The translations under genes and the position numbers were made by a program. Below, in pieces: positions 20,164 through 36,288 of a stretch of 39,898 nt of DNA (position 1 is the first letter of the stretch; each line of letters starts with the position of its first letter). The stretch is from Legionella genomosp. 1. Its GTDB lineage: Bacteria; Pseudomonadota; Gammaproteobacteria; Legionellales; Legionellaceae. Under the pieces are notes generated by a model, which made no database searches, was not told where the DNA came from, and saw only the letters and a program-made list of their open reading frames with translations. Where the stretch lies: positions 1 to 39,898 of the forward strand of contig CAMDMN010000001.1 of assembly GCA_945901965.1 (NCBI GenBank), in the 5' to 3' direction.

Positions 20164-20557
20164 AATTTAATTCACTTAAGTCTTTTGTGTTAAATTCTTC
20201 TGGACCATGGGGGATATTTGCAATATTAAGCAAAAGATTTAGATTCTCACCAACACCTCGAAAAGCCATCCATAAACCTGGAGATACGGTTAATCTTTGA
20301 TAATTTTCACATGAAAGGCTTATTTTTAGATGATTGATTCCATCATGTAAAATAAATTCTATCTCCCCTTGAGGCACAATAAGATTAAGGGTCATTTTAT
20401 TATGACGTTTCCAACCCTTGATTTCTTTATATTTTACAGTTGAAAAGTAAGCCTCTCCAAACCCATTATATCCTGAGTCAGAAGCTTTCATAGCATGCAA
20501 CACATTCCCTTTAGTACCGTGAATAATTTTCAATGGGGTTAAAATTACTCCATCCAT
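20156..20557 (-). CDS. Small cupin, RmlC/FdtA-superfamily sugar-nucleotide epimerase or ketoisomerase
   Basis: 133 aa. FGEAYFSTVKYKEIKGWKRHNKMTLNLIVPQGEIEFILHD resembles the RmlC-type core (S-x-S-x-x-G-x-x-R-G-x-H ... K-L-V-x-V-x-x-G-x-x-x-D-V). It sits between CDP-glucose 4,6-dehydratase and the aminotransferase. Confidence 0.5.
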   Translation of the reverse strand: MDGVILTPLKIIHGTKGNVLHAMKASDSGYNGFGEAYFSTVKYKEIKGWKRHNKMTLNLIVPQGEIEFILHDGINHLKISLSCENYQRLTVSPGLWMAFRGVGENLNLLLNIANIPHGPEEFNTKDLSELNYE

Positions 20558-21651
20558 GATTGTCCTTTAACTCTAGAAATATCTTGATATTCTTCAATTT
20601 GCTGACATGTCTTAGACCACATATCAGTCATTTTATGAAAATAATAGTTATGATACCAAGAACCTGTAAAGTTTACAGTTTTATCATAATCTAAACTAGC
20701 TTGCCAAGTTAAATAGCTTAGTGCTTTATCACAATTTAATTTTAATAAAGTGGCCTCATGGAAAGGGATATTATCGATTATATTATATAGTTGGCTATCA
20801 TCAACTAACCCCCATGTTTTAGCCAAAGACTGTAATAAATCAATAACAGTTCTGTTTTGATCGGCGCGTGGACCAAAATTAAAGGCCTCTCCATTAAACT
20901 TTATATCACCTAACAATTTTGAACCTAGTACTAAATATCCACTTAAAGGCTCTAAAACATGCTGCCAAGGTCTAGTTGCCATAGGGCAACGTATATCTAC
21001 TTTCTTCTTGTTGCTCCATGCTTGCATGCAATCAACAACTATCCTATCTTTAGCCCAATCTCCTCCACCTATAACATTACCAGCCCTGGCAATTGCTATC
21101 CTAATGTTATTACTGCCTTGTGAATTAAAGTATGAATGAAAATAAGATTTTATTATTAGTTCAGCACTCCCCTTAGAACCGCTATAAATATCTTTTCCCC
21201 CAAGAAAATCATCTTCTTTATAGCCCCAAACTTGCTCAACATTATCATAGGCTTTGTCACTGGTAATAATGACTGCAGTACAGCTACCTTTATATAACCT
21301 TAAGACCTCCAACAAATTAGCTGTTCCCATTACATTAGTTGATATAGTCTCAATTGGATTTAGGTATGATTCTGAGACAATTGCTTGAGCAGCTAAATGA
21401 AAAATAAAATCTGGCTTTTCCTTCTCAAAAATTTCTCTAAATGTCGATAAATCTCTGACATCTTCCAAATAATGAGTTAATTTATTACTTAATTGTAAAC
21501 AATCAAATAAAGAAGGCTGAGTAGGAATTTTATTAGATATCCCAACAACCGTTGCTCCCAAATTTATAAGCCAAGTAGCTAGCCATGAGCCCTTAAAACC
21601 TGTGTGGCCAGTAATTAGAACTTTTTTTCCTTCATAAGTTTGATTAAACAC
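20545..21651 (-). CDS. rfbG: CDP-glucose 4,6-dehydratase
   Basis: 368 aa. The N-terminus KKVLITGHTGFKGSWLATWL and the overall length are typical of RfbG/DdhB. It has a GTG start and is linked to rfbF. Confidence 0.9.
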   Translation of the reverse strand: MFNQTYEGKKVLITGHTGFKGSWLATWLINLGATVVGISNKIPTQPSLFDCLQLSNKLTHYLEDVRDLSTFREIFEKEKPDFIFHLAAQAIVSESYLNPIETISTNVMGTANLLEVLRLYKGSCTAVIITSDKAYDNVEQVWGYKEDDFLGGKDIYSGSKGSAELIIKSYFHSYFNSQGSNNIRIAIARAGNVIGGGDWAKDRIVVDCMQAWSNKKKVDIRCPMATRPWQHVLEPLSGYLVLGSKLLGDIKFNGEAFNFGPRADQNRTVIDLLQSLAKTWGLVDDSQLYNIIDNIPFHEATLLKLNCDKALSYLTWQASLDYDKTVNFTGSWYHNYYFHKMTDMWSKTCQQIEEYQDISRVKGQSWME

Positions 21652-21654
21652 TAA

Positions 21655-22875
21655 TTATCCTCTTATTCTTTTCCATAACGAATATAATTTGCTATGTAGT
21701 AATAATGATTTTTCCAATTCGTGAAATGTTAATTTCGTATTATTTAATCCCTCTATTAAACAATCAGCTGCAACTTTTATAGAGTGATTTTTTTGATAAT
21801 GATCAAAAGTCTTCTGTGATAGTAAACTTGATGTTGATTTCAAACTAATAACTATATCTTTTAATGTATGACCTTCATTTTTATAAAAATTAGTGTTTAT
21901 TTGCTGAGCCAAACTAAAATCATCGATTTCAAATAGCCACTTATAAAGATAATTATATTTTATTGGCTTAAAACTATAGTCAAGACGCACTGTTGGGACG
22001 CCTAACTTAGCACCTTCTAACGCAGAAGTACCCATTGCAAATAATATATCAACACCTAACAGAAATCCATTTAAATCATCAGGCAAAATCTCTTCAATAC
22101 ACTTGATAGTGATATTATCATAATTATAAAGATCTAATTGTCCGGATTTTTCTCCTGAGCCAACAATAATAAACTCTATAAATTGATCTAAAATAGCAGC
22201 TATATTACTTGCATCTTGAATTAGTTTATTTAAAATATGAATTTTAAAATCTGCCAATCTCCCAACCCAGGCAAAAACAAGTCTATTTTTATTTTTTTCA
22301 CTTACGCAGCCATTAATATATTCATTACTTAATTTTTTATCACTAAACAATGGCATAATTACCGGTAATTTAATATCAATTCTTAAATTTTTCTTAATAT
22401 TATTTACGATGTCATAATCAAGATATGCTACTGCTGAACAATCCTCTATCAATATTAAAAAATCTTGCATTTTTTTATATTCCTGATAAAGAATGCTATG
22501 CCAAATCAACCATGAGAAAAACTTAGGTTCAGCCATTTTTGATCTAAATATTGGCAAAAATGGATAGGCATTAATTGGGATAGTTGTAATAAAATATAAT
22601 TTCACCTGATTATCTATCTTTAACATTGGATAAATAGACCAAGGAGTCATTGTTTGTAAAACTAGAAAACAACCAGCAGGAATGTTTAATTTAATTTCAT
22701 CGCTATATTCAAGAAACTCTATCATTCCTGGTAAGTTTTTAGACATATATCCATCTTTGTAATCAATAACAGATACCTGATATCCTTGTTCAAATAAATA
22801 AATTGCCAATCGAATAAATAACAATGATACTCCACCAACTCCTTTATAAGGAAAACAAAAAATAATTTTATTCAT
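21655..22875 (-). CDS. Putative GT-B fold glycosyltransferase (divergent)
   Basis: 406 aa. It has an N-terminal FPYKGVGGVSLLFIRLAIYLFEQGYQVSVID and a C-terminal GTSALEGAKLGVPTV, a pattern like group 1 GTs, but there is no clear EX7E motif. Confidence 0.5.
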   Translation of the reverse strand: MNKIIFCFPYKGVGGVSLLFIRLAIYLFEQGYQVSVIDYKDGYMSKNLPGMIEFLEYSDEIKLNIPAGCFLVLQTMTPWSIYPMLKIDNQVKLYFITTIPINAYPFLPIFRSKMAEPKFFSWLIWHSILYQEYKKMQDFLILIEDCSAVAYLDYDIVNNIKKNLRIDIKLPVIMPLFSDKKLSNEYINGCVSEKNKNRLVFAWVGRLADFKIHILNKLIQDASNIAAILDQFIEFIIVGSGEKSGQLDLYNYDNITIKCIEEILPDDLNGFLLGVDILFAMGTSALEGAKLGVPTVRLDYSFKPIKYNYLYKWLFEIDDFSLAQQINTNFYKNEGHTLKDIVISLKSTSSLLSQKTFDHYQKNHSIKVAADCLIEGLNNTKLTFHELEKSLLLHSKLYSLWKRIRG

Positions 22876-22878
22876 TAA

Positions 22879-23658
22879 TTACTCTGACCAAACTCGCCAC
22901 TCTGCACATCCATCATCCCAAAGTTGATTAAGCTTCACTTTATCACGAAGTGTATCCATTGGCATCCAGAAACCAGTATGTTTATATGTAAAAATTTCAC
23001 CATCAATTGCCAATTCATTTAGTGGAGCCTGTTCAAATACCGTAGAATCTCCATCCTTTATATAATCAAAAACAGCTGATTCACAAACAAAATAGCCAGC
23101 ATTAATCCAACTACCGTCACCTTTAGGTTTTTCTCTAAATTTCTCTACCCTACCTATTTCATTAATATCTAAGGCACCAAAGCGACCATCAGGCTGTGAT
23201 GAAGTCATCGACATTAACTTACCATGTCCACGATGAAATTTAAGTAATTTATTAATATCTATATCTGCTACACCATCTCCATAAGTCAACATAAATGGTT
23301 CATTACCAATAATCTCTTGAGCTCTTTTAATTCTCCCTCCTGTCATTGAATCTAGCCCAGTATCTAAAAGAGTTACTTTCCATGGCTCAGAACAAGACTT
23401 ATGAATTTTAAGCTCATTTTTTACTAAATCTACCGTAACACTACTTTGATGAAGAATATAATTCGCAAAATATTCCTTAATGTAATATCCCTTATAACCT
23501 AATAAAATAATAAATTCATTAAACCCATAATAAGAGTATGTTTTCATAATATGCCAAAGTATTGGCTTTCCACCAACTTCAACCATAGGCTTAGGTCTAA
23601 GATCAGTTTCCTCACTTAAACGTGTACCAAAACCTCCAGCTAATATCAAAACTTTCAC
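22879..23658 (-). CDS. rfbF: Glucose-1-phosphate cytidylyltransferase
   Basis: 259 aa. KVLILAGGFGTRLSEETDLRPKPMVEVGGKPILWHIMKTYSYYGFNEFIILLGYKGYYIKEYFANY matches RfbF/DdhA. It has a GTG start. Confidence 0.92.
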   Translation of the reverse strand: MKVLILAGGFGTRLSEETDLRPKPMVEVGGKPILWHIMKTYSYYGFNEFIILLGYKGYYIKEYFANYILHQSSVTVDLVKNELKIHKSCSEPWKVTLLDTGLDSMTGGRIKRAQEIIGNEPFMLTYGDGVADIDINKLLKFHRGHGKLMSMTSSQPDGRFGALDINEIGRVEKFREKPKGDGSWINAGYFVCESAVFDYIKDGDSTVFEQAPLNELAIDGEIFTYKHTGFWMPMDTLRDKVKLNQLWDDGCAEWRVWSE

Positions 23659-23673
23659 TTAAATTCTCCCTAA

Positions 23674-24726
23674 CTAATAATCTCTGCAATATTCTTTTAA
23701 ATGCTCGTAAATATAATCAATCTCAAATTTTCTTTGGGTATTTTTCCATAAACCAACACCACTCATTGAATCCTCAGGTTTAAAATATTTTTTTGGATTT
23801 ATATGTACAGTAGCATCCTCTCCAAGAAATTTATAAATTTTACATCTTGTCTTATCATAATCTAGAACCAAATCCTCAAAATATATCATCAAAATCCTCG
23901 AGTCTAAATTAGGACAATTAACTGCTGATCGCTCACGTAAGGTACGATATCTATAAACATAATTTTTTATATCTTCACTGCCACTAAATAATCCCTGTGT
24001 TTTTGAAAACCAATTATTAAAACAAGTTGATAAATACAAATCACGAGGATCTCTGTCAATAATAATTTGTTGAGCGTTTCCTAATAAATCTAAAGATAAT
24101 TTAGGATTATAAGGCTCACAAGCATTAAGTAGAACCATGGTTTTAGCATTATTATTAAAATATATGATTTCCTTAAATAATTTTTCTAAATAAATATTTG
24201 TAATTTTTAAAAAATTCTCTCTTTCATAAATAGTAAAAAACATTTCTTCTGAAAAAAAATGCATGTCAGGGTAAAATCGATATATCAATTTTCTAATAGA
24301 ATTATTCAATTTATTTCTATTTTGAAATGGGTATGAAGATAATCCAATATGTTGGCACTTAATTAATTGATCTGTATATTGCCTAGTAATATTTATAAAT
24401 TCATTATTAAAATAGTGATTATATCGCATACCTGTAGATAGAACCCTACCAAGTAAATTAAACCACTTTGGATTTTGTGCAATTTCTGTAGTTAATTTTA
24501 TAAATTGCTTAATAGCTGTATCTGAGCGTGAAGGAGACCAATTTTCAATTAGATCTTGATAAAGGTTAACCAAGCCATTTTTAATACGCAAAAGAGCAAA
24601 CTCAAAACTATAATGGGGCAGGCAGTATTTTTCATTAAATTCACGCAATAAATCAATAACGGCTCCTTTACCAGATGCACCAAATCCAGACAAATCTAAA
24701 AATTTAATTGTATTCATTAATTTCAT
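23674..24726 (-). CDS. Sulfotransferase-like protein
   Basis: 350 aa. It has an N-terminal P-loop-like LSGFGASGKGAV (5'-PSB-like), IIIDRDPRDLYLS matching the R-[DN]-P-x-D-x-x-x-S 3'-phosphate-binding motif, and a C-terminal IYFEDLVLDYDKTRCKIYKFLGED (the YEDL...FLG pattern of sulfotransferases). Confidence 0.55.
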   Translation of the reverse strand: MKLMNTIKFLDLSGFGASGKGAVIDLLREFNEKYCLPHYSFEFALLRIKNGLVNLYQDLIENWSPSRSDTAIKQFIKLTTEIAQNPKWFNLLGRVLSTGMRYNHYFNNEFINITRQYTDQLIKCQHIGLSSYPFQNRNKLNNSIRKLIYRFYPDMHFFSEEMFFTIYERENFLKITNIYLEKLFKEIIYFNNNAKTMVLLNACEPYNPKLSLDLLGNAQQIIIDRDPRDLYLSTCFNNWFSKTQGLFSGSEDIKNYVYRYRTLRERSAVNCPNLDSRILMIYFEDLVLDYDKTRCKIYKFLGEDATVHINPKKYFKPEDSMSGVGLWKNTQRKFEIDYIYEHLKEYCRDY

Positions 24727-24815
24727 AACTCATTATATTAATTTTAAAAATATCGAGAAATATCTGTGGGTGATTTCTTAAATTATCAACAATCACCTTT
24801 TAATTTAATCTTATT

Positions 24816-25709
24816 TTATAAATTTTTTACAATAAACGACGCTACTCTCGGAACAAAAACCCCGACTTTAGGTTGGTATGCATATTCCTCTTTAAATTCT
24901 ATAAGAGTAAACCCTGCCTGAGTAAGTTGATCAATTACCTCCCGACAATCACGATATAAAAAAATATGATCGGCATGTGGTGCTGTTAAGGCTGCAGTAA
25001 TAAAGGCAACACCATTTTTTTGAAGCATACCACGCAAAGCACTCAAAAAACTTATTGGATCGTCTAAATGCTCTAAAACTTCTACTGATATTAGAAATGG
25101 GAACTTCTCCATTATTTTATTTTCAAGGATATTAAGTTTATTTATACTCCATCTTTCACTAACACCAAAAGCATTAACATGTCTACGAGAAAACTCAATA
25201 GATGCGTCACTTATATCAAAAGCATTAATCCTCAATTGAGGAATATCAGTAAGGCTTATACGACTATAAAATCCAGTACCAACTCCAACATCATACATGT
25301 GTTTCTCATCACTAAGAGCAACCAAAGGCAAAAATTTCTCTCTGAAATAATGTGACTGCCTATAGTGATGTGGCCAAAGATAATGACTTAACATTAGACC
25401 TGGAAGATATTGTGAAAGCATATAATCTTTATTATGATAAACCTCAGCAACTGCATCATCATATTTTTTATATATATATATCCCATCTTTTTCAAACTTG
25501 TTTTGTAGCCGTAAAGTGTCCATTACAAATTGGACATATCCCTTAACTGCATTTTCTATACCTGCATCTGTATAAAACACCTGCAACATTTCTTCAAACT
25601 CATTCGTCCAAATATTTCCATTTTGCATTTTATTTCTTAAAACAACATCTTTCATAAAAGGTGCTGTTTTTTTCATCGTAGCATCTAGAAATGTAATAAG
25701 AGATTCCAT
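24816..25709 (-). CDS. Class I SAM-dependent methyltransferase with a ~130-aa N-terminal extension
   Basis: 297 aa. SAM motif I is YDVGVGTGFYS, followed by downstream FDISDASIE and ISVEVLEHLDDP. It lies immediately downstream of the ACP gene. Confidence 0.8.
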   Translation of the reverse strand: MESLITFLDATMKKTAPFMKDVVLRNKMQNGNIWTNEFEEMLQVFYTDAGIENAVKGYVQFVMDTLRLQNKFEKDGIYIYKKYDDAVAEVYHNKDYMLSQYLPGLMLSHYLWPHHYRQSHYFREKFLPLVALSDEKHMYDVGVGTGFYSRISLTDIPQLRINAFDISDASIEFSRRHVNAFGVSERWSINKLNILENKIMEKFPFLISVEVLEHLDDPISFLSALRGMLQKNGVAFITAALTAPHADHIFLYRDCREVIDQLTQAGFTLIEFKEEYAYQPKVGVFVPRVASFIVKNL

Positions 25710-25970
25710 TTAAGCATCCTGAAATGTTAAATCTAAAGCATCACACACCGTCATACATACCAACTGGAAGCTTCTCATTTCTAAAACCTGACTATCAGAA
25801 AACGTAACATTAAACTCTTCTTCCAATGATACAATTAAATTCATCTGCCCAATAGAATCCCATGACTGAATTGTTTCAGGAGAGGATAAAGGAGTTATTT
25901 CATTTAAATCAATCTCAAAAAGCCTCGAGATAATCTTTTTCACACAATCTTCTACTTGTTGCTTAATCAT
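25710..25970 (-). CDS. Acyl carrier protein (stand-alone)
   Basis: About 86 aa from ATG 25970, which forms an ATGATTAA overlap with the upstream stop. The phosphopantetheine-site context is QSWDSIGQMNLIVSLEEEF (a DS-L/I type motif). Confidence 0.8.
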   Translation of the reverse strand: MIKQQVEDCVKKIISRLFEIDLNEITPLSSPETIQSWDSIGQMNLIVSLEEEFNVTFSDSQVLEMRSFQLVCMTVCDALDLTFQDA

Positions 25971-27705
25971 AAATAAATTCCTTATTAACGTAATCACAAA
26001 AATTTGGTAATTTTAAATTTAAATCATAAGAATACTTTTTAACCCCATTATCAGTAATTAATAGGATAAAACCTAACTGTTCATATAGATTAGATACCGG
26101 AATATTCTTTACCGTTGGAATATATTCTCCATAGAGTATTTTTATACCTGATTTTTTTAGGTCACTAATAACTGACTCAAAAAAAGCAAATTCAATTTTT
26201 CTCCCCATAACTCGACAACTTAACAAAAATGTATCAATACTTGCGGATAACCCATTACTGTCAAATTTAATAATTAACAAACCAACCGTTCCGGCGTCTC
26301 CAAATCGATCAGATACATCTATTGCATAAACCCGACAATACTCTGAAGCAATAAATTTGCGCATTTCTGTTTCGGAGTAACGATAAGTTGTTAAGTTAAA
26401 CTGATTGGTTTTCTGTGTTAATTGAGAAAGACGAGCGACTTTAAAGAGAGGATCTATTCTTATAGATAATGATAGCTGCAAATAACGAAGATAATCATCC
26501 AAACTTTCAAATTCATTTTTTATTCTCATACGCTCATCTTCCAATTGATACATTTTTAATCTTTGCGCATCCTCTAGAGTTTGAACTAAGCCAAAAAAAC
26601 TATTAGCTAGTTTTCTTATAATTGCTGGATATTCATATAAATTACGTGGAACTTGAACTACATCGACCTCTGGAAGCATCTTTCTAATTAAATTAACTTC
26701 AAAATCACTATCATCAACAAATACAATACTATCTAAACCAATATTTAGGGTATTAGCCATATTGATTATATTTATATGTTTTTCCTCCCAATTAACCTTG
26801 CGAATACAAAGATCATTCTCACTTAGTCTCATAGTTTTATCTATTAAAAACAGTTCTTTGACATCTTCATCATTATTTTTACTACAAATTCCAACTAACA
26901 CTCCTCTTTTAATTAGAGCAGCAATAATTGTTTGAACATCTCGATATGGATAACCAATTGGAGTCTCATATTTTTCCAAAATACCTTCTACCCCATCTTC
27001 ACCAACAACTCCTGGCCAAAGTGTATTATCACAATCTAAAATTAGCATTTTTTTAATTTTTCCACGAAGAAATATCAATGGATGCTTAATTTGAGAAGTA
27101 AACACTTTCATCATATTAAGGGTATACAAAGCTTTATGTATGTAATAATTTTGTGGGCTTATTGCGCTGGATACTCCTATGCTTCCAATAATTCTATCTA
27201 TATTTACAATTTGTACATTTTTTCCAATACAAGATTCGAGTATAGAATTCATCGAGTCTACAATCAGATCAAAATTATCTGGTTGTACTTGATTATAGTT
27301 GAATGCCAAAGAAGAAAATCGGTTAAAAAGTACCAAAGGTACATTTTCTAAAATACGGAACAATAATTGTAGCTCAAGCTTACATTTATTCAAAAGCTCA
27401 TCTATTTCTTTATTTGATAAAAGATTAGCCATGTAACTTAGGCTAGGAATATAATTTGCTGCCTCCCAAAAAATAATAACAGCATCACTATCAGAGTATT
27501 TTTCTGCATCTTGAAGAATATTATCATAATCACCAATAATAACATCCGCTTTTATTCCCTCTATTCCTAATTGATATTCCAAAAGATCCTTTATTAAGTT
27601 AACAGTAATATTTGTAAGGACGACAATACGAAAAGGCAAACCACACAATTTTTTCTTCATTTCTCTATTTTGGATTACAATTTCAGAAAAAGATACTTCA
27701 CTCAT
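25963..27705 (-). CDS. FkbH-like HAD-IIIC phosphatase/acyl-loader with C-terminal GNAT-like domain
   Basis: 580 aa. HAD motif I plus the FkbH signature appear as LILDCDNTLWPGVVGEDGVEGI, together with GICSKNNDEDV. The C-terminal ~150 aa (FGDAGTVGLLI...LLSCRVMGRKIEFAFF) are acyltransferase-like, as in the FkbH-domain family. Confidence 0.8.
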   Translation of the reverse strand: MSEVSFSEIVIQNREMKKKLCGLPFRIVVLTNITVNLIKDLLEYQLGIEGIKADVIIGDYDNILQDAEKYSDSDAVIIFWEAANYIPSLSYMANLLSNKEIDELLNKCKLELQLLFRILENVPLVLFNRFSSLAFNYNQVQPDNFDLIVDSMNSILESCIGKNVQIVNIDRIIGSIGVSSAISPQNYYIHKALYTLNMMKVFTSQIKHPLIFLRGKIKKMLILDCDNTLWPGVVGEDGVEGILEKYETPIGYPYRDVQTIIAALIKRGVLVGICSKNNDEDVKELFLIDKTMRLSENDLCIRKVNWEEKHINIINMANTLNIGLDSIVFVDDSDFEVNLIRKMLPEVDVVQVPRNLYEYPAIIRKLANSFFGLVQTLEDAQRLKMYQLEDERMRIKNEFESLDDYLRYLQLSLSIRIDPLFKVARLSQLTQKTNQFNLTTYRYSETEMRKFIASEYCRVYAIDVSDRFGDAGTVGLLIIKFDSNGLSASIDTFLLSCRVMGRKIEFAFFESVISDLKKSGIKILYGEYIPTVKNIPVSNLYEQLGFILLITDNGVKKYSYDLNLKLPNFCDYVNKEFIYD

Positions 27706-28892
27706 ACCATAACTCCCCCGCCATTTACCCGCAAAGTCTCACCCGTAATAAAGTCAGAGTCAGAGCTCATTAAATAGGAAACCGCAGATGCTACATCACT
27801 AGGTTTACCCATACATTTTAATGGGGTTGAACTCTCTATTAATAAACGATTTTTCAATGGAATATCAGCGACTAAATTTGTATCGATCATACTTGGAGAA
27901 ACAAGATTAATTCTTACTCCATATGGAGCAATTTCAACAGCAACTGACTTAACATACCCTACTAGAGCAGACTTTGCGGCGATATAATGAGCCCATTTAG
28001 CCACAGGTTGATCTACAGCTTGTGTTGAAAGAACAACTATTTTCCCATATTTTTCATCAATAAACTTGGGAATGATATTGCTACTTATATTATAAAATCC
28101 CTTCAAATTAACTTCAATTTGGTCATTGATGTCATGCCATCTAAGCACACTAGAATTTAATGATGGAAGTTTAGGAGTAGGGCAAAACACAAACCCAATA
28201 ATATTTGGCATCCTTTTATTTACTTGCAAAATCATTTCTCTTACCGAATCTTCATTTGTTACATCAGCTTGAAATAAAAATACTTGGCTGGAATCAGATG
28301 CAATTTCAGAACGAAGTTTATGAGCCTGATCAGCATTTTTATTATAATGCACAGCAATATCAAAACCATCACCTGAGAGCCTTCTACAAATTTCTCTCCC
28401 TATCCCTCCAGTAGCACCTACTACAAGAACTGCTGGCTTTTTCTGTTTTTTACCAAGATCTACAGAATTTTTCTCAAGATCTTGTTCTTCAATCACCTTT
28501 ACTTTTGCATGACCACTGGTCAATAATTCATTGTGTTGATTAAATATGTTGGTTGTTAATTCAATTACTTCATCACGTAAATACTTTTTAATTACTTCTG
28601 CGCGAACTCTAAGAATATCACCAACTCGAGCTGGCTTTAAAAAATTTAATTGCTGTGACATCCAAAGAGAACCATCTCCAGGGAGCTTCGTACCAATTAT
28701 TGTAGAAATAAAAGAAGCACCTAACATTCCATGTGCTACAGGCATTTTAAAATATGTACGTGAAGCATACAACTTATCAACATGCAGACGATTGTCATCA
28801 CCCGTCAAAGTAACAAACCTCGAAATATCTTCATCAGTAATTTTATGACAGACCTCAGCAAAATCACCAACTTTAATTTCTGAAAATTTCAT
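27702..28892 (-). CDS. Bifunctional MaoC-like (R)-hydratase/dehydratase + short-chain dehydrogenase/ketoreductase fusion
   Basis: 396 aa. The N-terminal hot-dog domain carries the hydratase motif LTGDDNRLHVD. The C-terminal SDR has VVGATGGIGREI (TGxxxGIG) and YIAAKSAL (YxxxK). Confidence 0.85.
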   Translation of the reverse strand: MKFSEIKVGDFAEVCHKITDEDISRFVTLTGDDNRLHVDKLYASRTYFKMPVAHGMLGASFISTIIGTKLPGDGSLWMSQQLNFLKPARVGDILRVRAEVIKKYLRDEVIELTTNIFNQHNELLTSGHAKVKVIEEQDLEKNSVDLGKKQKKPAVLVVGATGGIGREICRRLSGDGFDIAVHYNKNADQAHKLRSEIASDSSQVFLFQADVTNEDSVREMILQVNKRMPNIIGFVFCPTPKLPSLNSSVLRWHDINDQIEVNLKGFYNISSNIIPKFIDEKYGKIVVLSTQAVDQPVAKWAHYIAAKSALVGYVKSVAVEIAPYGVRINLVSPSMIDTNLVADIPLKNRLLIESSTPLKCMGKPSDVASAVSYLMSSDSDFITGETLRVNGGGVMV

Positions 28893-28897
28893 TATCC

Positions 28898-29464
28898 TTA
28901 CAATTCCTTTTTCTGTAAACGTGACTTGACAACCCTACCAGGATTCCCCACTACAATTGAATAAGGAGGAATAGGACCACTCACTACTGATCCAGCTCCA
29001 ATCACTGACCCTGTACCAATATGTGCACCAGAAAGCAAAATGGCATTTGGGGCAATCCACACATGATCTTCAATTACAATACTATATAATTTATTATTAA
29101 AAATAATGGTTTTAAAATCATGTCCTTGTTCTATAAAAGGAAGATTTAAGTCATCAAAACGATGGTTAGCCGTTCTAACCCAAGCCCCTCGCGAAACCCA
29201 AACATGATTACCAATCCAAATCGGATAAGAATCTCCTGCAGCAATACTTGCAGATTCTCCTATCATAAAATTATCACCAACATTAATCATATTTTTAATC
29301 CCAATACTGGATCCACGCTCAAAAATAGCTTGTTTACCAATACGATCTTTCAATATATATTCCCAATATTTTCTCCGAAGCCATCTTCCTAATTGGGTTT
29401 CAGGATAATAAATAATAATAAAACTAATCCACTGCTTAATCTCAATAATGAATAATTTAAACAT
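28898..29464 (-). CDS. Hexapeptide-repeat (LbH) acyl/acetyltransferase
   Basis: 188 aa with hexapeptide repeats ending IAPNAILLSGAHIGTGSVIGAGSVVSGPIPPYSIVVGNPGRVV. It has a hydrophobic N-terminus. Confidence 0.8.
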   Translation of the reverse strand: MFKLFIIEIKQWISFIIIYYPETQLGRWLRRKYWEYILKDRIGKQAIFERGSSIGIKNMINVGDNFMIGESASIAAGDSYPIWIGNHVWVSRGAWVRTANHRFDDLNLPFIEQGHDFKTIIFNNKLYSIVIEDHVWIAPNAILLSGAHIGTGSVIGAGSVVSGPIPPYSIVVGNPGRVVKSRLQKKEL

Positions 29465-29606
29465 AAAGATCCTTGCCTATAAATGATAATTTATTACTGT
29501 TAATATAAATTTAAAAAATTAAAATCAATATTATGAGAGTTATAAAATTTATTTTTAAAAATAAATTAACTTTAACTAACTTTATAAGAGTTAAATTGAT
29601 TTGATT

Positions 29607-30233
29607 TTAATTAAAAATTATTTCCTCATTTGATTTTATCAATTTATTTTTTAAAACTTCAACACCAAACCTGTCAGACAAATTATGCAATATAAACTGG
29701 TGTCCAACTTCAACATAACCATAATCATAAGAGTCTAACCAAAAATTAAAATGTCCAATCTCCCTTAAAGAATTATTATTATCAAAGCCAGTAAAAGTAA
29801 CAACATTAACACCTCGTTCTATCGCTACTTCTACAGCATTACATATATTTTTAGATTTTCCGGAGCTACTAATTGCAATTAGCATATCACCTGATTTAAT
29901 AAATTGTGATAATACTCTAGAGTATGCATTCTCATAACCAAAATCATTTGCCATACAAGTAATCAGCGATGATTCGTGTAATACTTGCGCATTGATCTTT
30001 GCAACATTAACAAAATCAACTTGGGCATGACTTGCAACGGCCGCACTACCACCATTGCCAATAATATAAAGCGACTGTTTGTCTTGACGAATCTTTCGTA
30101 GATTGTCCAATACTTGTAACATTGCTAATTCAAGATTAACTATGTTCATTTCTTCATTTGTACAAACTGTATTGGTGATAATCTGAGCGAATTCAGTAGC
30201 GCGATGGTTAAGTTGCATTTTATTTAATTCCAT
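29607..30233 (-). CDS. SIS-domain sugar-phosphate isomerase, GmhA/DiaA-like
   Basis: 208 aa. IIGNGGSAAVASH and GDMLIAISSSGKSKNI match the phosphoheptose-isomerase-type SIS motifs. Confidence 0.8.
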   Translation of the reverse strand: MELNKMQLNHRATEFAQIITNTVCTNEEMNIVNLELAMLQVLDNLRKIRQDKQSLYIIGNGGSAAVASHAQVDFVNVAKINAQVLHESSLITCMANDFGYENAYSRVLSQFIKSGDMLIAISSSGKSKNICNAVEVAIERGVNVVTFTGFDNNNSLREIGHFNFWLDSYDYGYVEVGHQFILHNLSDRFGVEVLKNKLIKSNEEIIFN

Positions 30234-31162
30234 ATTAATTCTCCATTTTCTTTTATTTTTTCAAAATTTTTTATTACCATTAAACCCATTGCTTCAATAG
30301 CCTCTGAAGTACTACCACCTATGTGACTTGTTGCAAAAAAATTATCTAATGCAAGTAATTTTTCAGACACTTTCGGCTCTTCCTCAAATACATCTAAAGC
30401 TGCTGCTAAATATTTGCTTTTTAATACCTGATACAACGCCACTTCATCAACTAACCCCCCTCGAGCGGTATTAATTAGAATTGCCCCTTTTTTCATTGCG
30501 TTTAATTCATCAAACCCAATAAAATGATGGTTTTCTGGAAGTAATGGAATATGGAGTGAGATTATATCTGACTGTTCTAACAGTGTGTTAAGCTTCACCT
30601 GCTTTACATGTGTCATTAAATTATCATGGGTTTGAATATCATAAATTAAACATTTACAACCGAACCCTTGGAGTAATAAAGCCAAATCTTGGCCAACAGC
30701 ACCAAACCCAATAATACCAACAGTCTTATTTGAAAGTTGACTTCCAGTAGGTTGCTGCCATTGTCCTTTCTTAATCTTTTCATAAACTATATGTAAATGA
30801 CGCTGTATTGTAAAAATTAGACCTAAGACTAATTCTGATACTGAACGCTTATTCAATCCAGGAGTAGCTGCAAAACCTATACCACGACGCTCCAAAGCGT
30901 TAAGGTCAATCTTGTCTATACCAGTACCCATTTTACAAATTACTTTCAAATCTGGTAAATAGTCAAGAAGTTTATCATCAATGACTTCTAAGCCAATAAT
31001 TGCATGTGTCGCTCCATGCAAAAATTTAATTAATGCTTCATCAGCCAACTTAATTCCAGCATCATTAAATTTTACATTAGTAAATTTCTCTCGCAATCTT
31101 TGACGAAGGATATTATTTTTTGAAAATGAACGAGATGTAACTGCAACTAATTGTTTATTCAC
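30224..31162 (-). CDS. D-isomer-specific 2-hydroxyacid dehydrogenase (SerA/PdxB-like), NAD-binding
   Basis: 312 aa. Motifs are the NAD motif GIIGFGAVGQDLA, NTARGGLVDE, LDVFEEEP and TSHIGGST. It has a GTG start. Confidence 0.85.
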   Translation of the reverse strand: MNKQLVAVTSRSFSKNNILRQRLREKFTNVKFNDAGIKLADEALIKFLHGATHAIIGLEVIDDKLLDYLPDLKVICKMGTGIDKIDLNALERRGIGFAATPGLNKRSVSELVLGLIFTIQRHLHIVYEKIKKGQWQQPTGSQLSNKTVGIIGFGAVGQDLALLLQGFGCKCLIYDIQTHDNLMTHVKQVKLNTLLEQSDIISLHIPLLPENHHFIGFDELNAMKKGAILINTARGGLVDEVALYQVLKSKYLAAALDVFEEEPKVSEKLLALDNFFATSHIGGSTSEAIEAMGLMVIKNFEKIKENGELIWN

Positions 31163-31176
31163 AATAAAACATATCC

Positions 31177-31932
31177 TTATTCATGCTCAAAAAAATTACT
31201 TATTTTCTCAATGTGAGAACCTGCAGAAGCATAATCAATATACCAAGATATATCTCTACTTGGTTTAAGTAGTTGAATAGGATATTCAAACTCACCTAAA
31301 TTACTAAATACAGATTTAACCACATGAGCTTTAGATTCACCTGCAACAAGAACGGCTACTAATATTGCAGAATTTATTGCTTGCAAAGTTAAACTAATAC
31401 GACGCGATTGTAAATGTTTAACATCGATATTTACGACTATATTATTAGAATTTAATGACTCCTTATCGTCAGGAAATAATGAGGCAATATGACCGTCTAC
31501 TCCAACCCCCAATAACACAAAATCAAATTGTGGAAGGCCTTTTTCATTTTTAGGTAAATTTGAATTTAGCTTATTTTCATAAAGAATAGCTGATTCATGC
31601 GGAGTAATATCTTCCGTTTTTATACGATGGATATTTGCAACATTAAGTGAGACGTGACTCAGAAATCGAGAACTAATCATATTAAAGTTATTATCTATAT
31701 GAGATTCTGGCACAAATCGTTCGTCAGTTTGATAAATATGTACAAATTGCCAATCGATTTGATCAACATAAGGTTTGTTAGCTAAAAGAGAATAAAATAA
31801 CTGTGGCGTGTTTCCTCCAGATAGAGCAACATGAAAACTACCAGAATTACTAATATTAAATTTTGCCTGATTAACAAATTGTTGTGCAAGCATATGACTA
31901 AGTTGCTCTAAATTTTTTTTAACATATTGCAT
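31177..31932 (-). CDS. 6-phosphogluconolactonase-family protein (Pgl/DevB/NagB fold)
   Basis: 251 aa. ALSGGNTPQLFY, YQTDERFVP and LLGVGVDGHIASLFP match Pgl signatures. Confidence 0.8.
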   Translation of the reverse strand: MQYVKKNLEQLSHMLAQQFVNQAKFNISNSGSFHVALSGGNTPQLFYSLLANKPYVDQIDWQFVHIYQTDERFVPESHIDNNFNMISSRFLSHVSLNVANIHRIKTEDITPHESAILYENKLNSNLPKNEKGLPQFDFVLLGVGVDGHIASLFPDDKESLNSNNIVVNIDVKHLQSRRISLTLQAINSAILVAVLVAGESKAHVVKSVFSNLGEFEYPIQLLKPSRDISWYIDYASAGSHIEKISNFFEHE

Positions 31933-31975
31933 GCAATCATTCCAATATTATTAACCAATTGAAATTAAAAAACAT

Positions 31976-33115
31976 CTAAACCAACATATTAGATTTGGTA
32001 AAAGCAATTTTTTCTTGAGATTTAATAGCCCTCCCACTTAATAAATAAAGTCGACATAGATCTTTAAATAGCTGATCATTAGCAATATTTGCTTTAGAAA
32101 TTAAGCTATGTTGATTAAGTAAAATTAAACTCAACACATCATTACCTGTATTTTTTTTATCCTTAGAGATTGCTCGTAGGAATGCATCTAACGGAATAAA
32201 TTCCTGAGCATAATCAATATAATTTTGGGCTAATACTGCATGCATTCTAATATAATGTTCAGATGTTGTTAAATTAGTTTCCATAGCAATATAATTCGCC
32301 ATATCCATACCAATCGTTACTGCAATTCCATGAGGAATCTTATACTCTGTGGCTGACTCAATTGCATGACCAAAGCTATGGCCATAATTCATCACCTGCC
32401 GTATATCTCTATCAAATTCATCTTGTTCTATAATCTCTTTCTTAATTTCTAATGACCGACGAATATAATACGTCATCAATTCATTATTTTCGAAAAGACC
32501 ATCATAATCTTTTGATATTTGATTAAATGATTTCTCGCCGTCAATTGCATGTACCTTTAACATTTCACCAATTCCAGATCTAATAGCCTGAATATCTAAT
32601 GTCTTGAGAAATTCTAAATAAATAAAAATCTGCTTGGGTGGAGTAAAAGTTCCCAATATATTTTTAGCATCCCCACAATTTATAGAACTTTTAGAACCGA
32701 TGCAAGAATCTGCCTGAGCAAGAAGTGTAGTCGGGACAAAATACCATTCTACCCCGCGCAACATATTAGCAGCTAAAAAACAGGTAATATCTTGAATAAT
32801 ACCACCGCCAATCGCGATTAATTGCTGATTGCGCCGAAGCTTATTTTTTACTAAATGTTCAACATAAGCTGGCATTTTCTCTAGAGATTTATTTTTTTCA
32901 TCCGCTTCAATTGTTAAAACAGATATGGCAGATGTCAATATCTCTTTAAGTTGGTCGTGATAAAGAGTAAATATATTTTTATCTATTATGATATGGCTTT
33001 GATGAATGATTTCCTTATCAAGTTGAAATTTATTTCCCTCCATAAAACTTACACTATACCTTCCCTTATGAGATTGAACTTCAAATGAATAATTAGACAC
33101 GGGTAAATCCTCCAT
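31976..33115 (-). CDS. 3-dehydroquinate synthase-family sugar-phosphate cyclase (divergent AroB paralog)
   Basis: GGGIIQDITCFLAANMLRGVEWYFVPTTLLAQADSCIGSKSSIN, AKNILG, SGIGEMLK, RQVMNYGHSFGHAIE, HGIAV and SKDKK align motif by motif with AroB. The start is ambiguous between GTG 33136 and ATG 33115, and both overlap the upstream SDR stop. Confidence 0.85.
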   Translation of the reverse strand: MEDLPVSNYSFEVQSHKGRYSVSFMEGNKFQLDKEIIHQSHIIIDKNIFTLYHDQLKEILTSAISVLTIEADEKNKSLEKMPAYVEHLVKNKLRRNQQLIAIGGGIIQDITCFLAANMLRGVEWYFVPTTLLAQADSCIGSKSSINCGDAKNILGTFTPPKQIFIYLEFLKTLDIQAIRSGIGEMLKVHAIDGEKSFNQISKDYDGLFENNELMTYYIRRSLEIKKEIIEQDEFDRDIRQVMNYGHSFGHAIESATEYKIPHGIAVTIGMDMANYIAMETNLTTSEHYIRMHAVLAQNYIDYAQEFIPLDAFLRAISKDKKNTGNDVLSLILLNQHSLISKANIANDQLFKDLCRLYLLSGRAIKSQEKIAFTKSNMLV

Positions 33116-33812
33116 CAACAGCAATATTTTGCCCACTTAAATAAGTATTTTCTTCACTCACTAACCATAAAACAAATCTAGCAATCTCATCAGGCTGACC
33201 TAATCTACCAATTGGAATTTGCTGCACGATTTCAAGTATTTTATCTTCGCCTAAAATCTGTTTGGTCAAGTCAGTTTCAATAAATCCAGGCGCTACACAA
33301 TTAGCTAAAATTCCATATGAAGCTACTTCAGCAGCCAATGCAGCTGTCATACCATCTAACGCAAATTTACTAGCAGAATAAGGTGCACGCCAAGATTTAC
33401 TCACTTTACCTAAAACAGAACTCAAGTTTACTATTCTTCCCCATGCCTTTTTACGCATCCCAGGAATCACTGATCTACACAAAATAAATGGAGCGTTAAG
33501 ATTTACTCGTTGTATATTATTAAAATTTTCTAAGGTTGTGTTTTGAAAGGGAGCTATAATATTAATTCCTGCGTTGTTAATCAAAATATCTGGTTCTAAT
33601 TCAGCAAGTATTTCCGCAAATTTCTCCGTGCTTTTTTCACACAGAAAATTAACCGAATAATATTGAAAATCATCAGAAATTGTAGTCTTTTCACTTGTTC
33701 CAGTAATTAACACTTGTGCGCCAGCAAATTTAAGTTGCTGAGCTATAGCAAGCCCAATTCCTCTATTAGCTCCCGTTACAACAGCCATTTTACCATTTAA
33801 CTCAATTGTCAT
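33093..33812 (-). CDS. Short-chain dehydrogenase/reductase (FabG-like)
   Basis: 239 aa with VVTGANRGIGLAIA, NNAGI and YSASKFAL (YxxxK). Confidence 0.9.
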   Translation of the reverse strand: MTIELNGKMAVVTGANRGIGLAIAQQLKFAGAQVLITGTSEKTTISDDFQYYSVNFLCEKSTEKFAEILAELEPDILINNAGINIIAPFQNTTLENFNNIQRVNLNAPFILCRSVIPGMRKKAWGRIVNLSSVLGKVSKSWRAPYSASKFALDGMTAALAAEVASYGILANCVAPGFIETDLTKQILGEDKILEIVQQIPIGRLGQPDEIARFVLWLVSEENTYLSGQNIAVDGGFTRV

Positions 33813-33845
33813 TTAATGCTACTTCTTCTGTTATTTATTTGTAGA

Positions 33846-34916
33846 TCAGTCAATAAGTTCAAAATTTAATTTTTTGCTTTTAGATTTAGCTTTTAAAGAC
33901 CAACGGTCACTCCATGCTAGATCTGCATAGTATATTTGATACACAAGCGACATAGTATTATAAGCATCTTCTAAAGTGCCATGCTTGATCTCAGCTTTAC
34001 CTAAAATTGCATCAGCAAATTCTGCAATTTCATATTTCCAAGAATTATCTTCATTATAACGAGTAGTTTGTTCTTTAGGGTCACCACAGTCGTCTTGGGT
34101 TGCCCAAGCGATAGTCATTTTTTCAGAGCCATAACTTTTTGAACCTGAAAGAATTCCACTTAGAGTAATAGCCCCCTTTTCTAAACTAATATCTAACTGA
34201 AATTGATGACGCCATTGAGTTGCTGAAGAATGCAACATCGCCACAATTTTATTTTTAGTACGCATCAGTGCATATGCATTATCTTCAACATCATGTTTCC
34301 AAAAATCATTCGAAATAAAACTATGAACTTCACTAAACTCTCCACCAAATAAGCGTAAGAGATCAACCATATGAATTCCTTGATCAAGCAATATTCCTCC
34401 ACCTGCTATAGCACGCTGACTTCGCCAATCAGAATTTTGACCAAAATTAATTATTTTTGATTTACCATACACCCCACGCAAATTAATTACATCACCTAAT
34501 TCCTTGGAATTAATTATACTTAGAGCCGCTGAAACGGAATCATGATATCGATGATTAAATCCATATTTTAACTTAAGATGTGGATGTTTTTTCTTACAGG
34601 CGACTACCAGATCCATATCAGATAAATCACGTCCAGGTGGCTTTTCACAAAAAACATGCAACCCTCTTTCTAACCCCGCAACAGTAACTTCTGCAGCAAT
34701 ATCATTTGTCAAACACACGAAAAGAATATCTAAATCTTGAGCCAGCAACTCTTTATAATTAGAAAAATAAGGGACACCGCTATCCATTTTACCACTGCTC
34801 ATAAAATGTCGGTCACAAATAGCAACTACTTTTAAATTAGCATGCAAATCGATATGAAAATGACGACGCTTTCCAACAACACCATACCCTGCAATACCAA
34901 CCCTTAATTTTTCCAT
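33846..34916 (-). CDS. Gfo/Idh/MocA-family NAD(P)-dependent sugar oxidoreductase
   Basis: 356 aa with N-terminal VGIAGYGVVGKRRH, the EKP motif VFCEKPPG and GFNHRYH. It is the first gene of the long minus-strand operon as currently arranged. Confidence 0.9.
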   Translation of the reverse strand: MEKLRVGIAGYGVVGKRRHFHIDLHANLKVVAICDRHFMSSGKMDSGVPYFSNYKELLAQDLDILFVCLTNDIAAEVTVAGLERGLHVFCEKPPGRDLSDMDLVVACKKKHPHLKLKYGFNHRYHDSVSAALSIINSKELGDVINLRGVYGKSKIINFGQNSDWRSQRAIAGGGILLDQGIHMVDLLRLFGGEFSEVHSFISNDFWKHDVEDNAYALMRTKNKIVAMLHSSATQWRHQFQLDISLEKGAITLSGILSGSKSYGSEKMTIAWATQDDCGDPKEQTTRYNEDNSWKYEIAEFADAILGKAEIKHGTLEDAYNTMSLVYQIYYADLAWSDRWSLKAKSKSKKLNFELID

Positions 34917-34966
34917 AAAACATCCTAATTTATAAAAAATACAGTTATTTTTTTAGTAAGCCCTAA

Positions 34967-35117: not shown

Positions 35118-35259
35118 CACCTCGTTACTAATTTGTAACGGATAAATTTTTCATTTTTAAGCTTTCTATTTTTTTATCGGATATACCAGAGTCAACTTTT
35201 TAGCTCATTAATTTTTTTGACTGTTGTCACAAAATTAGATCATCTAACGCATCCTGTAA

Positions 35260-36177: not shown

Positions 36178-36191
36178 CCAGGAGATTCCCC

Positions 36192-36284: not shown

Positions 36285-36288
36285 CTAA

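Follow-up and report, generated by a model that had tools for sequence, protein, structure and literature searches.

A conserved FkbH-containing cassette in a Legionella polysaccharide locus probably builds a lactate-type acyl group on a dedicated carrier protein

Gene content of the cassette

The window analyzed here is the whole stretch of 39,898 nucleotides at positions 1 to 39,898 of contig CAMDMN010000001.1 from Legionella genomosp. 1. Our subject is a cassette of five minus-strand genes within it, which combines an FkbH-family enzyme and a dedicated acyl carrier protein (ACP) with a dehydratase-ketoreductase fusion, a methyltransferase, and an acyltransferase. Reading in the direction of transcription, the first gene (28898-29464) encodes a 188-aa acyltransferase of the left-handed β-helix (LbH), hexapeptide-repeat type (Hexapep, 41 bits). 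It is followed by a 396-aa fusion of a MaoC dehydratase and a short-chain dehydrogenase/reductase (SDR) ketoreductase (27702-28892; MaoC_dehydratas and adh_short), hereafter termed DH-KR, and by a 580-aa FkbH-family protein of the haloacid dehalogenase subfamily IIIC (HAD-IIIC; 25963-27705), which scores above the TIGR01686 cut-off. An 86-aa ACP (25710-25970; PP-binding, 25.4 bits against a cut-off of 20.8) and a 297-aa class I S-adenosylmethionine (SAM) methyltransferase (24816-25709) complete the set. The original prediction, an earlier reading of this DNA, had placed five genes with these domains here. All five open reading frames (ORFs) are present on the minus strand, and profile searches confirm the domains of the fusion, the FkbH-like protein, the ACP, the methyltransferase, and the LbH protein. 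The four families it had named for checking (the FkbH TIGR model, PP-binding, MaoC_dehydratas, and adh_short) were all matched.

The genes are tightly packed. A spacer of 5 nt separates the LbH gene from the fusion, the fusion and FkbH genes overlap by ATGA, the FkbH and ACP genes overlap in ATGATTAA, and the methyltransferase ATG stands directly after the TAA of the ACP gene. The five genes are thus translationally coupled. The ACP is likely to start at the ATG at 25970, which gives 86 aa and agrees with the public gene call, rather than at the GTG at 25997 of the ORF list.

The FkbH-like protein scores 260.6 bits against TIGR01686 (FkbH; cut-off 146.65) over residues 217-546 and 61.5 bits against TIGR01681 (HAD-IIIC; cut-off 35.75). 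It comprises an N-terminal domain (residues 1 to ~215), the HAD-IIIC phosphatase domain, and a C-terminal domain with the fold of the GCN5-related N-acetyltransferases (GNATs) that carries Cys497. In an alignment of 79 homologues, the HAD motifs (D224/D226/T228, S275, K309, and D331/D332) are kept in at least 95% of the sequences, as is S496-C497-R498...G501-R502, with Cys497 itself kept in 99%. Full-length relatives (~580 aa, 40-47% identity) number at least in the thousands. An AlphaFold2 model of the protein (mean confidence score pLDDT 85.9) was compared with the PDB using Foldseek. The C-terminal ~155-175 residues match many GNATs at target-normalized template modeling (TM) scores of 0.6-0.75. 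The N-terminal and HAD domains match 3slr, a structural-genomics entry that covers the N-terminal part of Bacteroides fragilis BF1531, at a target-normalized TM score of 0.78. We take the RxxGRK stretch right after Cys497 to resemble the pantetheine-binding motif A of GNATs.

These features can be read against OzmB, in which a phosphoglyceryl-S-enzyme is formed and dephosphorylated before glyceryl is passed to the ACP (PMC9057759). By analogy with this mechanism, Cys497 would be the nucleophile of an acyl-S-enzyme intermediate, and the GNAT-like tail most likely holds this intermediate and loads the ACP. The original prediction had recognized the tail as GNAT-like, which the model and the Foldseek matches bear out, and had offered it as a possible sugar acyltransferase. 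That role is unlikely, since the tail falls within the FkbH model, since FkbH domains built into polyketide synthases (PKSs), which have no sugar substrate, possess it too, and since it carries the near-invariant Cys497 in its SCRVxGR motif.

In the fusion, MaoC_dehydratas covers residues 16-114 (55.5 bits) and adh_short/adh_short_C2 covers residues 154-392 (135-150 bits; adh_short itself 154-344). Sequence matches in the PDB are the (R)-specific enoyl-CoA hydratase 5cpg for residues 3-137 and FabG for residues 154-393. At least 97% of 77 fusion homologues keep the hydratase-2 residues D32/H37, the GxxGGIG motif, and K307 of YxxxK, and Y303 is invariant in a 16-sequence alignment. At least 120 full-length relatives of the fusion (~395 aa, 48-53% identity) occur across many phyla. 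The phosphopantetheine site of the ACP, W46-D47-S48, is likewise kept across 73 homologues. The methyltransferase matches only generic class I families (Methyltransf_12/31/23/11/25), is longer than FkbG/OzmF-type enzymes (297 aa compared to ~220 aa), and yielded no informative relative in a PDB sequence search. These generic matches do not establish it as FkbG-type.

Distribution across genomes

To determine how widely the cassette occurs, we searched one genome per species using the DH-KR fusion alone as query. The search returned 80 loci. As the fusion was the sole query, its linkage to the FkbH and ACP genes is free of selection bias. Of 81 fusion-carrying loci, 79 have an FkbH homologue downstream of the fusion on the same strand, and 72 have an ACP gene following. 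The fusion and FkbH genes are directly adjacent in 72 of 79 loci, with a median gap of -4 nt. An unrelated contig (locus L001) has the identical five-gene order, with proteins 60-71% identical to those of the window. The arrangement is therefore far beyond chance, given that the same five-gene cassette recurs in this contig and its three-gene core in about 80 genomes.

The triad of DH-KR, FkbH, and ACP genes keeps a fixed order in ~80 species-level genomes, which span at least 15 phyla, and its loci are rich in genes for glycan synthesis. Among the lineages are Omnitrophota, Bacteroidota, Geobacterales, Elusimicrobia, Cyanobacteria, Nitrospirae, Nitrospinota, Ignavibacteria, Chlorobiota, Gemmatimonadota, Bdellovibrionota, Clostridia, and several proteobacterial classes, and one metagenome-assembled genome (MAG) is labeled Woesearchaeota. 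Carriers available in culture include Phormidium tenue FACHB-1050, Pseudanabaena sp. lw0831, Winogradskyella eckloniae EC29, Gelidibacter gilvus IC158, Autumnicola psychrophila F225, and Algoriphagus sp. 4150. Most related loci hold glycan genes, namely those for family 2 and family 4 glycosyltransferases (GT2/GT4), Wzx, NeuB (in 11 loci), 4,6-dehydratases, FdtA-type isomerases, C-methyltransferases, and nucleotide-sugar enzymes. DegT aminotransferases are present in 50 of 79 related loci. This co-occurrence is weak evidence for N-acylation, since aminotransferases are common in glycan loci anyway. NCBI curated models name the cassette proteins only generically, and in the literature searched we found no paper tying FkbH-type loading to polysaccharides. 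What is new here is that known chemistry and domain logic appear in a glycan setting, with new partners (the LbH protein and a dedicated methyltransferase family) and a breadth not previously remarked upon.

The methyltransferase family (cluster 5) adjoins the triad in 35-36 of ~80 loci (~44%), whichever sugar pathway is present. This linkage irrespective of sugar pathway argues that the enzyme would act on the acyl group rather than on a particular sugar. Orthologues of the LbH protein (148-216 bits) lie directly upstream of the DH-KR gene in L001, L043, and L061, and LbH genes of a second type come after the ACP gene in nine other loci. Both types resemble O-acetyltransferases. The best NCBIfam names for the window protein are WcaF and WbbJ, far below cut-off (70.5 against 192 bits and 58.1 against 243 bits). 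Its PDB sequence matches include DapH, the N-acetyltransferase QdtC, and maltose and galactoside O-acetyltransferases, and N- and O-acyl transfer could not be separated by PDB sequence searches with either type. In L043, from a Marinisomatales MAG, the gene directly before DH-KR (8467-10002) encodes a 511-aa protein in which a GT2 domain is fused to a window-type LbH domain, a fusion that hints at the growing glycan as the site of action. The window LbH protein is a candidate for moving either the ACP-bound acyl group or simply acetyl onto a sugar.

Several variants of the cassette were also observed. About 21 loci (for example L016 6400-16200, L025, L020, and L057) carry an extended and conserved version, in which the DH-KR, FkbH, and ACP genes are preceded by genes for a 98-aa ORF, FabG, a metallo-β-lactamase (MBL)-fold protein, a FabH-like β-ketoacyl-ACP synthase III (KAS III), and a methyltransferase, and are followed by genes for an AMP-ligase, a GNAT, and DegT. 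This version possibly builds a longer hydroxy-acyl chain from a C3 primer. In L036, L051, and L054 (Thiothrix), a divergent FkbH-like gene (114-125 bits), a ~95-aa ORF, and the DH-KR gene occur in reversed order, forming a separate sub-architecture. Sinorhizobium meliloti pSymB (L083, 5148-10182) encodes a membrane-bound O-acyltransferase (MBOAT), an unnamed protein, an ACP, and a 628-aa FkbH-like protein, with no DH-KR gene. This set could be a Dlt-style system that exports glyceryl for extracytoplasmic O-acylation.

Counterparts in polyketide biosynthesis

When plasmids were searched by tblastn with the FkbH-like protein as query, a giant PKS encoded on Ensifer canadensis pT173a came to light. 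At its N-terminus, MaoC_dehydratas (19-96) is followed by adh_short (293-479), FkbH (~705-1067), and PP-binding (1159-1220), with a ketosynthase (KS) from residue 1265. Over 384 aa, its FkbH domain and the window protein share 33% identity, including LDCDNTLW and LLSCRVxGR. A PKS encoded on p1 of Burkholderia sp. FERM BP-3421 has the same MaoC, adh_short, PP-binding, and KS layout, and its loading module is 53.8% identical to that of Ensifer over 99% of its length. The gene lies downstream of a regulator gene and a trans-acyltransferase (trans-AT) gene and is followed by a nonribosomal peptide synthetase (NRPS) gene. BryA of the bryostatin pathway has a further loading module of the DH-KR-FkbH-ACP type.

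The Burkholderia strain produces FR901464 and spliceostatins (PMC10190677). The FR901464 cluster is described as "using glycerate as starter units" in the title of a paper cited in PMC5640593. The 4-acetoxy-enamide end of spliceostatin is consistent with a lactate-level starter (PMC7431757).

A discrete version of the same functions is encoded on Streptomyces griseofuscus pSGRIFU1, which has separate genes for a MaoC-SDR protein (499 aa), an ACP (84 aa), and an FkbH-like protein (540 aa). They adjoin lankacidin-type PKS genes and a gene for a protein with pyrroloquinoline quinone (PQQ)-binding repeats; from these annotated neighbors, we infer this to be the lkc cluster. Its FkbH-like protein shares 32% identity with that of the window over 361 aa, with LLSCRVLGR aligned to the Cys497 region. 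The lankacidin starter is described as pyruvoyl- or lactoyl-ACP made from 1,3-bisphosphoglycerate, with only the lactoyl intermediate accumulating (PMC6162330). The parallel that the original prediction drew with DH-KR-FkbH-ACP loading modules is thus substantiated, as two PKS N-termini and a discrete lankacidin-type set share the domains of the window.

Predicted product

On the basis of these comparisons, the cassette probably turns 1,3-bisphosphoglycerate, an intermediate of glycolysis, into a lactate-type acyl group on the ACP, which would be attached to a sugar of an O-antigen-type polysaccharide. The proposed pathway has four steps. In the first, to judge from its family membership and conserved residues, the FkbH-like protein would form a 3-phosphoglyceryl thioester on Cys497 from 1,3-bisphosphoglycerate. 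The HAD-IIIC domain would then remove the phosphate and glyceryl would pass to Ser48 of the ACP. It is likely that the FkbH-like protein and the ACP give glyceryl-ACP in this way. In the second step, the MaoC half would dehydrate glyceryl-ACP to the enol of pyruvoyl-ACP and the SDR half would reduce it to lactyl-ACP, a conversion that we regard as reasonably probable by analogy with the PKS systems. In the third, the co-translated methyltransferase would modify the acyl group, most simply by 2-O-methylation. This is a weaker inference drawn from gene linkage, and formation of 2-methoxypropanoyl-ACP or another methylated form is a tentative suggestion. In the fourth and weakest step, the LbH protein would place the acyl group on a sugar of the polysaccharide, at a hydroxyl or an amine. 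The chances that this adjacent protein is the acyltransferase in question are slightly less than even.

The idea that a C3 hydroxy-acyl group is built on the ACP is therefore supported. Among the glyceroyl, lactoyl, and O-methylated options that the original prediction had left side by side, the analogy clearly favors lactoyl, optionally O-methylated, over glyceroyl, because the DH-KR gene adjoins the FkbH gene in 72 of 79 loci and the PKS counterparts are tied to lactoyl or pyruvoyl starters.

Some points weigh against this interpretation. With respect to the second step, the position of the catalytic Ser is occupied by Thr in the fusion family, as seen by eye in the 16-sequence alignment, and FabG-like SDRs usually reduce 3-oxo rather than 2-oxo thioesters. 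The DH-KR proteins are also only distantly related to those associated with PKSs (20-23% identity, E ~1e-7 to 1e-8), and so the equivalence of chemistry rests on family, order, and linkage. The link to FR901464 is presumptive in that the Burkholderia PKS is taken to be Fr9C from strain identity and gene order, and the 2011 work of Zhang et al. on FR901464 is reported to have found that DH and KR domains turn glyceryl- into lactyl-ACP. With respect to the later steps, the methyltransferase could act on a sugar or on carbon, and the LbH protein could, from its sequence relatives, be an ordinary acetyl-CoA-dependent O-acetyltransferase. Nor is transfer uniform, since the triad is paired elsewhere with GNAT, AAC(3)-like, FabH-like, or unknown proteins. 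More generally, the chemistry of all glycan-context copies is a prediction from their genes.

Alternative explanations

Four other explanations were considered. The most probable of them, though still improbable, is a product left at the glycerate level (glyceroyl or O-methyl-glyceroyl), with the DH-KR protein instead serving, for example, to epimerize C2 through a cycle of dehydration and rehydration or of oxidation and reduction. A glyceroyl-type N-acyl sugar is documented in Campylobacter jejuni (PMC3068675), in a locus with an FkbH-domain gene (PMC7099621). Four related loci have genes of the Cj1295-like DUF4910/DUF2172 type and AAC(3)-like genes close to the triad, and the linkage of the methyltransferase to the triad in ~44% of loci would also suit an O-methylated glyceroyl group. 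Against this, the DH-KR gene adjoins the FkbH gene in 72 of 79 loci with its catalytic residues kept, and the PKS systems with this domain set carry a lactate-level rather than a glycerate-level unit in the product. Pairs of FkbH and ACP genes also exist separately from DH-KR, as in S. meliloti pSymB, which suggests that the DH-KR protein is what changes the product.

Slightly less probable again is that the C3 thioester serves as a primer or building block, which is extended to a longer hydroxy-acyl chain or condensed into something larger, for example a higher-carbon sugar acid or a lipid. PKSs use the same unit to prime chain extension, and the ~21 loci with the extended cassette add a FabH-like KAS III, FabG, a second ACP-sized ORF (no Pfam match), an MBL-fold protein, and an AMP-ligase. 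A gene for an HpcH pyruvate aldolase also accompanies the cassette both in L061 and in the window. However, no extension machinery stands beside the window cassette, since no ketosynthase, thiolase, AMP-ligase, or second ACP is found among the window ORFs of at least 90 aa, and HpcH aldolases use free pyruvate.

We rejected a third explanation, according to which the product is an (R)-3-hydroxyacyl group such as 3-hydroxybutanoyl, made through crotonyl- or acetoacetyl-ACP, with the FkbH-like protein merely loading or priming the ACP. The 3-hydroxybutanoyl group is the commonest non-acetyl N-acyl group in bacterial glycans, and the nearest relatives of the two halves of the fusion are (R)-specific enoyl-CoA hydratase on the MaoC side and FabG and acetoacetyl-CoA reductases on the SDR side. 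Nevertheless, we consider this explanation very improbable. There is no C4 source in the window (neither a KAS III nor a thiolase), and the FkbH-like protein keeps all HAD motifs and the Cys, which are sensible only for a phosphorylated acyl donor such as 1,3-bisphosphoglycerate. Hydratase and ketoreductase are alternative routes to a 3-hydroxyacyl thioester, which would make the conserved fusion redundant and leave it unexplained, and the identical loading domain set of PKSs is tied to glycerate-derived starters.

Finally, it is highly improbable that the FkbH-like protein is a bifunctional sugar-phosphate phosphatase and N-acyltransferase acting directly on a sugar, for example in a KdsB-linked ulosonic acid pathway, with the ACP and DH-KR proteins serving another purpose. 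It does unite a HAD phosphatase domain and a GNAT fold in one protein, Kdo-type pathways need a phosphatase, and the window, L001, and L061 all link a KdsB-like gene to the cassette, but the HAD and tail region scores above the curated FkbH cut-off, is 32-33% identical to FkbH domains that work in PKSs where there is no sugar, keeps Cys497 in 99% of homologues, and has an ACP gene adjacent in 72 of 81 loci.

Candidate acceptor sugars

Two pathways encoded in the window could supply the sugar that accepts the lactate-type acyl group. The first is a CDP-glucose branch on the minus strand (19042-23658). It includes a glucose-1-phosphate cytidylyltransferase (22879-23658; TIGR02623, 388.6 bits), a CDP-glucose 4,6-dehydratase (20545-21651; TIGR02622, 468.7 bits), both above cut-off, a DegT aminotransferase (19042-20163; 296 bits), and a 406-aa ORF of unknown family. 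Between the dehydratase and DegT genes lies a gene for a small FdtA-like cupin (20156-20557), a weak match at 23.5 bits. This protein could act as a 3,4-ketoisomerase on the CDP-sugar, giving a CDP-3-amino-3,6-dideoxyhexose. In six unrelated loci (L023, L026, L029, L044, L047, and L081), RfbF/RfbG homologues (254-400 bits) are encoded less than 8 kb from the triad.

The second pathway is encoded on the plus strand (36693-39263) by genes for a methyltransferase, an HpcH/HpaI-type pyruvate aldolase (HpcH_HpaI, 123 bits), and a KdsB-like cytidylyltransferase (CTP_transf_3, 146 bits; NF009905, 276.9 bits against a cut-off of 255). The content of this trio suggests a route to a CMP-activated 3-deoxy-ulosonic acid by way of a pyruvate aldolase rather than a phosphoenolpyruvate (PEP)-dependent synthase. 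The same trio occurs in the same order in L061, a Bacteroidia MAG, directly after the ACP gene (13199-15697; 224-236 bits), and L001 has a KdsB-like gene. None of L001, L043, and L061 has the CDP-glucose genes. Among the closest relatives, the conserved partner of the cassette is this second pathway.

The acceptor candidates are accordingly a CDP-amino-6-deoxyhexose, whose genes lie downstream, and a CMP-activated sugar of the 3-deoxy-ulosonic type. In the original prediction, the cassette was set beside CDP- and dTDP-amino sugar pathways. The genes in question are real (TIGR02623, TIGR02622, and DegT, as well as an FdtA/LbH/DegT set), but their adjacency does not settle the acceptor, because the closest relatives L001 and L061 pair the cassette with a KdsB-like gene rather than with CDP-glucose genes, and because both triad-linked LbH types resemble O-acetyltransferases. 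Its caveat that the acyl group and acceptor cannot be read with certainty from the sequence is upheld.

A D-2-hydroxyacid dehydrogenase of the phosphoglycerate dehydrogenase (PGDH)-like type is encoded close to the cassette (30224-31162, minus strand; 2-Hacid_dh_C, 181 bits). L001, L043, and L061 have homologues (81-254 bits) close to the cassette, in the last of these directly upstream of the LbH gene, and the enzyme is possibly an accessory of this cassette subtype. It belongs to a block of six minus-strand genes (29607-34916) that encode a GFO/IDH/MocA oxidoreductase, a FabG-like SDR, a 6-phosphogluconolactonase-like protein, the PGDH-like protein, a GmhA-like SIS protein, and an AroB-related protein. 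The last is a "putative sugar phosphate phospholyase (cyclizing)" by TIGR04425 (470 bits against a cut-off of 400). Some of the 2-hydroxyacid dehydrogenase, GFO, SIS, and AroB-related cyclase genes recur in L001, L043, and L061. The block could make a cyclitol or an unusual sugar.

Setting of the cassette in the locus

A long minus-strand polysaccharide operon of the O-antigen/lipopolysaccharide (LPS) type dominates the window, running from ~34916 down to 5140 at ~32% GC. For the phosphoglucose isomerase encoded in the flank, the closest homologues with a name all belong to Legionella species (57-60% identity), so the DNA probably comes from an uncultured gammaproteobacterium of Legionellales-like affinity. 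The GC profile of the window reveals no compositional break or anomaly at the cassette, so a horizontal origin cannot be argued from GC content. Scanned for promoters and terminators, positions 23500-36800 had about as many promoter-like sites as shuffled sequence and 14 terminator-like sites compared to a shuffle mean of 5.1 (~3-fold). None of the terminator-like sites falls in the gaps flanking the cassette. The cassette therefore cannot be claimed as a separate transcription unit. A single ops-like GGCGGTAG match on the minus strand (4805-4812) is probably meaningless; such matches occur at chance level (20 of 100 shuffles), and it is not upstream of the operon.

Other genes of the operon were also noted. 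Two Wzx-like flippase genes (7678-8967 and 13675-14931, minus strand) occur together with two unannotated ORFs of membrane-protein size (6319-7506 and 16906-18132). The locus also holds an FnlABC set (10380-13644) and the FdtA/LbH/DegT set (14928-16874). With two Wzx-like genes and both of these sets, it may specify two distinct repeat units. A minus-strand gene for a sulfotransferase-like protein (23674-24726; PF13469, 35 bits, with a P-loop-like GxGxSGKG) separates the cassette from the CDP-glucose genes, and no homologue of this protein turned up in the 80 related loci. The polysaccharide may be sulfated.

Implications

Antigenicity, phage recognition, and immune evasion are all shaped by the small acyl groups other than acetyl that decorate O-antigens, capsules, and flagellin sugars, and the biosynthetic genes for most of these groups are unknown. 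If the triad does produce lactyl- or methoxypropanoyl-ACP, its signature in ~80 species-level genomes and hundreds of metagenomic contigs predicts such decorations. It would also offer a specific hypothesis of how glyceroyl-type groups arise in Campylobacter-like systems, and would tie the tailoring of glycans to the loading modules of PKSs in evolutionary terms. How several small acyl decorations originate becomes directly testable with four or five small soluble proteins.

A bolder proposal, which we consider doubtful, is that free-standing lactoyl-ACP cassettes, with or without the methyltransferase, are a widespread and unrecognized route by which bacteria of 15 or more phyla add lactyl or 2-methoxypropanoyl esters or amides to surface glycans, and that the PKS modules were recruited from them. 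Under the same proposal, the acceptor in this Legionella would be a CMP-activated sugar acid derived from the pyruvate aldolase instead of a classical amino sugar.

Comparison with known systems

Dedicated carrier proteins and LbH acyltransferases for small acyl groups are familiar from other glycan systems. The tetronate genes rfbK-O of Vibrio cholerae O1 place a dedicated ACP in an O-antigen cluster, where a small hydroxy-acyl group is built for a 6-deoxy amino sugar, and AntD of Bacillus anthrose synthesis is an LbH N-acyltransferase that uses a non-acetyl hydroxy-acyl donor. These systems differ from that of the window in that their acyl groups are others and are loaded by an acyl-CoA/AMP-ligase or supplied as CoA thioesters.

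The cj1295-cj1304 locus of C. jejuni comes closer in the type of product. Like the proposed system, it involves a glycerate-derived, O-methylated acyl group in amide linkage to a sugar, and has an FkbH-domain gene in a glycan locus. The genome annotation also places ACP and methyltransferase genes in this locus. Strain NCTC 11168 makes a 5-N-(2,3-di-O-methylglyceroyl) derivative of pseudaminic acid (carried on CMP-Pse), which depends on Cj1295 (PMC3068675), and the FkbH-domain gene is cj1302 (PMC7099621). Unlike the predicted product of the window cassette, this product keeps both glycerate oxygens, consistent with there being no DH-KR step. Genetic evidence concerns Cj1295 only, the biosynthetic link there is conjectural, and the parallel rests on these papers and on shared membership of the Pfam family DUF2172. 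The window has neither a Cj1295-like gene nor a nonulosonic-acid synthase (NeuB/PseI). Cj1295-like proteins (DUF4910, DUF2172, and HTH_47) are encoded near the triad in L041, L046, L053, and L065, which links these loci to the Campylobacter di-O-methylglyceroyl-pseudaminic acid system, and AAC(3)-like N-acetyltransferases accompany them in L041, L046, and L065.

The methoxymalonyl-ACP pathway (FkbGHIJK, OzmBDEFG) shares the loading of glyceryl by an FkbH-family enzyme and dedicated ACP, and a SAM methyltransferase finishes the unit (PMC9057759). In contrast to that pathway, the window has a dehydratase-reductase fusion and the unit would be reduced instead of oxidized. OzmB (366 aa) also lacks the N-terminal domain of the window protein. 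Neither the FkbK/OzmG-type 3-hydroxyacyl-CoA dehydrogenase family nor the FkbI/OzmD-type acyl-CoA dehydrogenase family is represented in any window ORF. As these two oxidizing enzymes are required (PMC9057759), a methoxymalonyl-ACP product was excluded.

The lankacidin-type set resembles the cassette in having three discrete functions and an FkbH-like protein with an N-terminal extension. Its starter ends as an N-lactoyl amide (PMC6162330), a close chemical analogy to an N-acylated amino sugar. It differs in that the ACP gene precedes the FkbH gene, with a major facilitator superfamily (MFS) gene between them, in that the acyl group is handed to an NRPS/PKS and not to a glycan, and in having no LbH or cassette-type methyltransferase gene.

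The DH-KR-FkbH-ACP modules of PKSs have MaoC_dehydratas, adh_short, FkbH, and PP-binding in the order of the window, and DxDxT and SCRVxGR are common to both. The window differs in having three separate proteins, in its polysaccharide locus, and in that no ketosynthase follows; its dehydratase is a single hot-dog domain of ~140 aa, and its FkbH-like protein has an extra N-terminal domain of ~215 aa. The window ORFs of at least 90 aa include no KS, condensation (C) domain, thiolase, or AT. The unit would therefore work like a PKS loading unit but is not part of a PKS. By analogy, the three core genes of the window appear to be a dissociated copy of a unit that is tied, in two natural-product systems, to a lactate-level C3 thioester.

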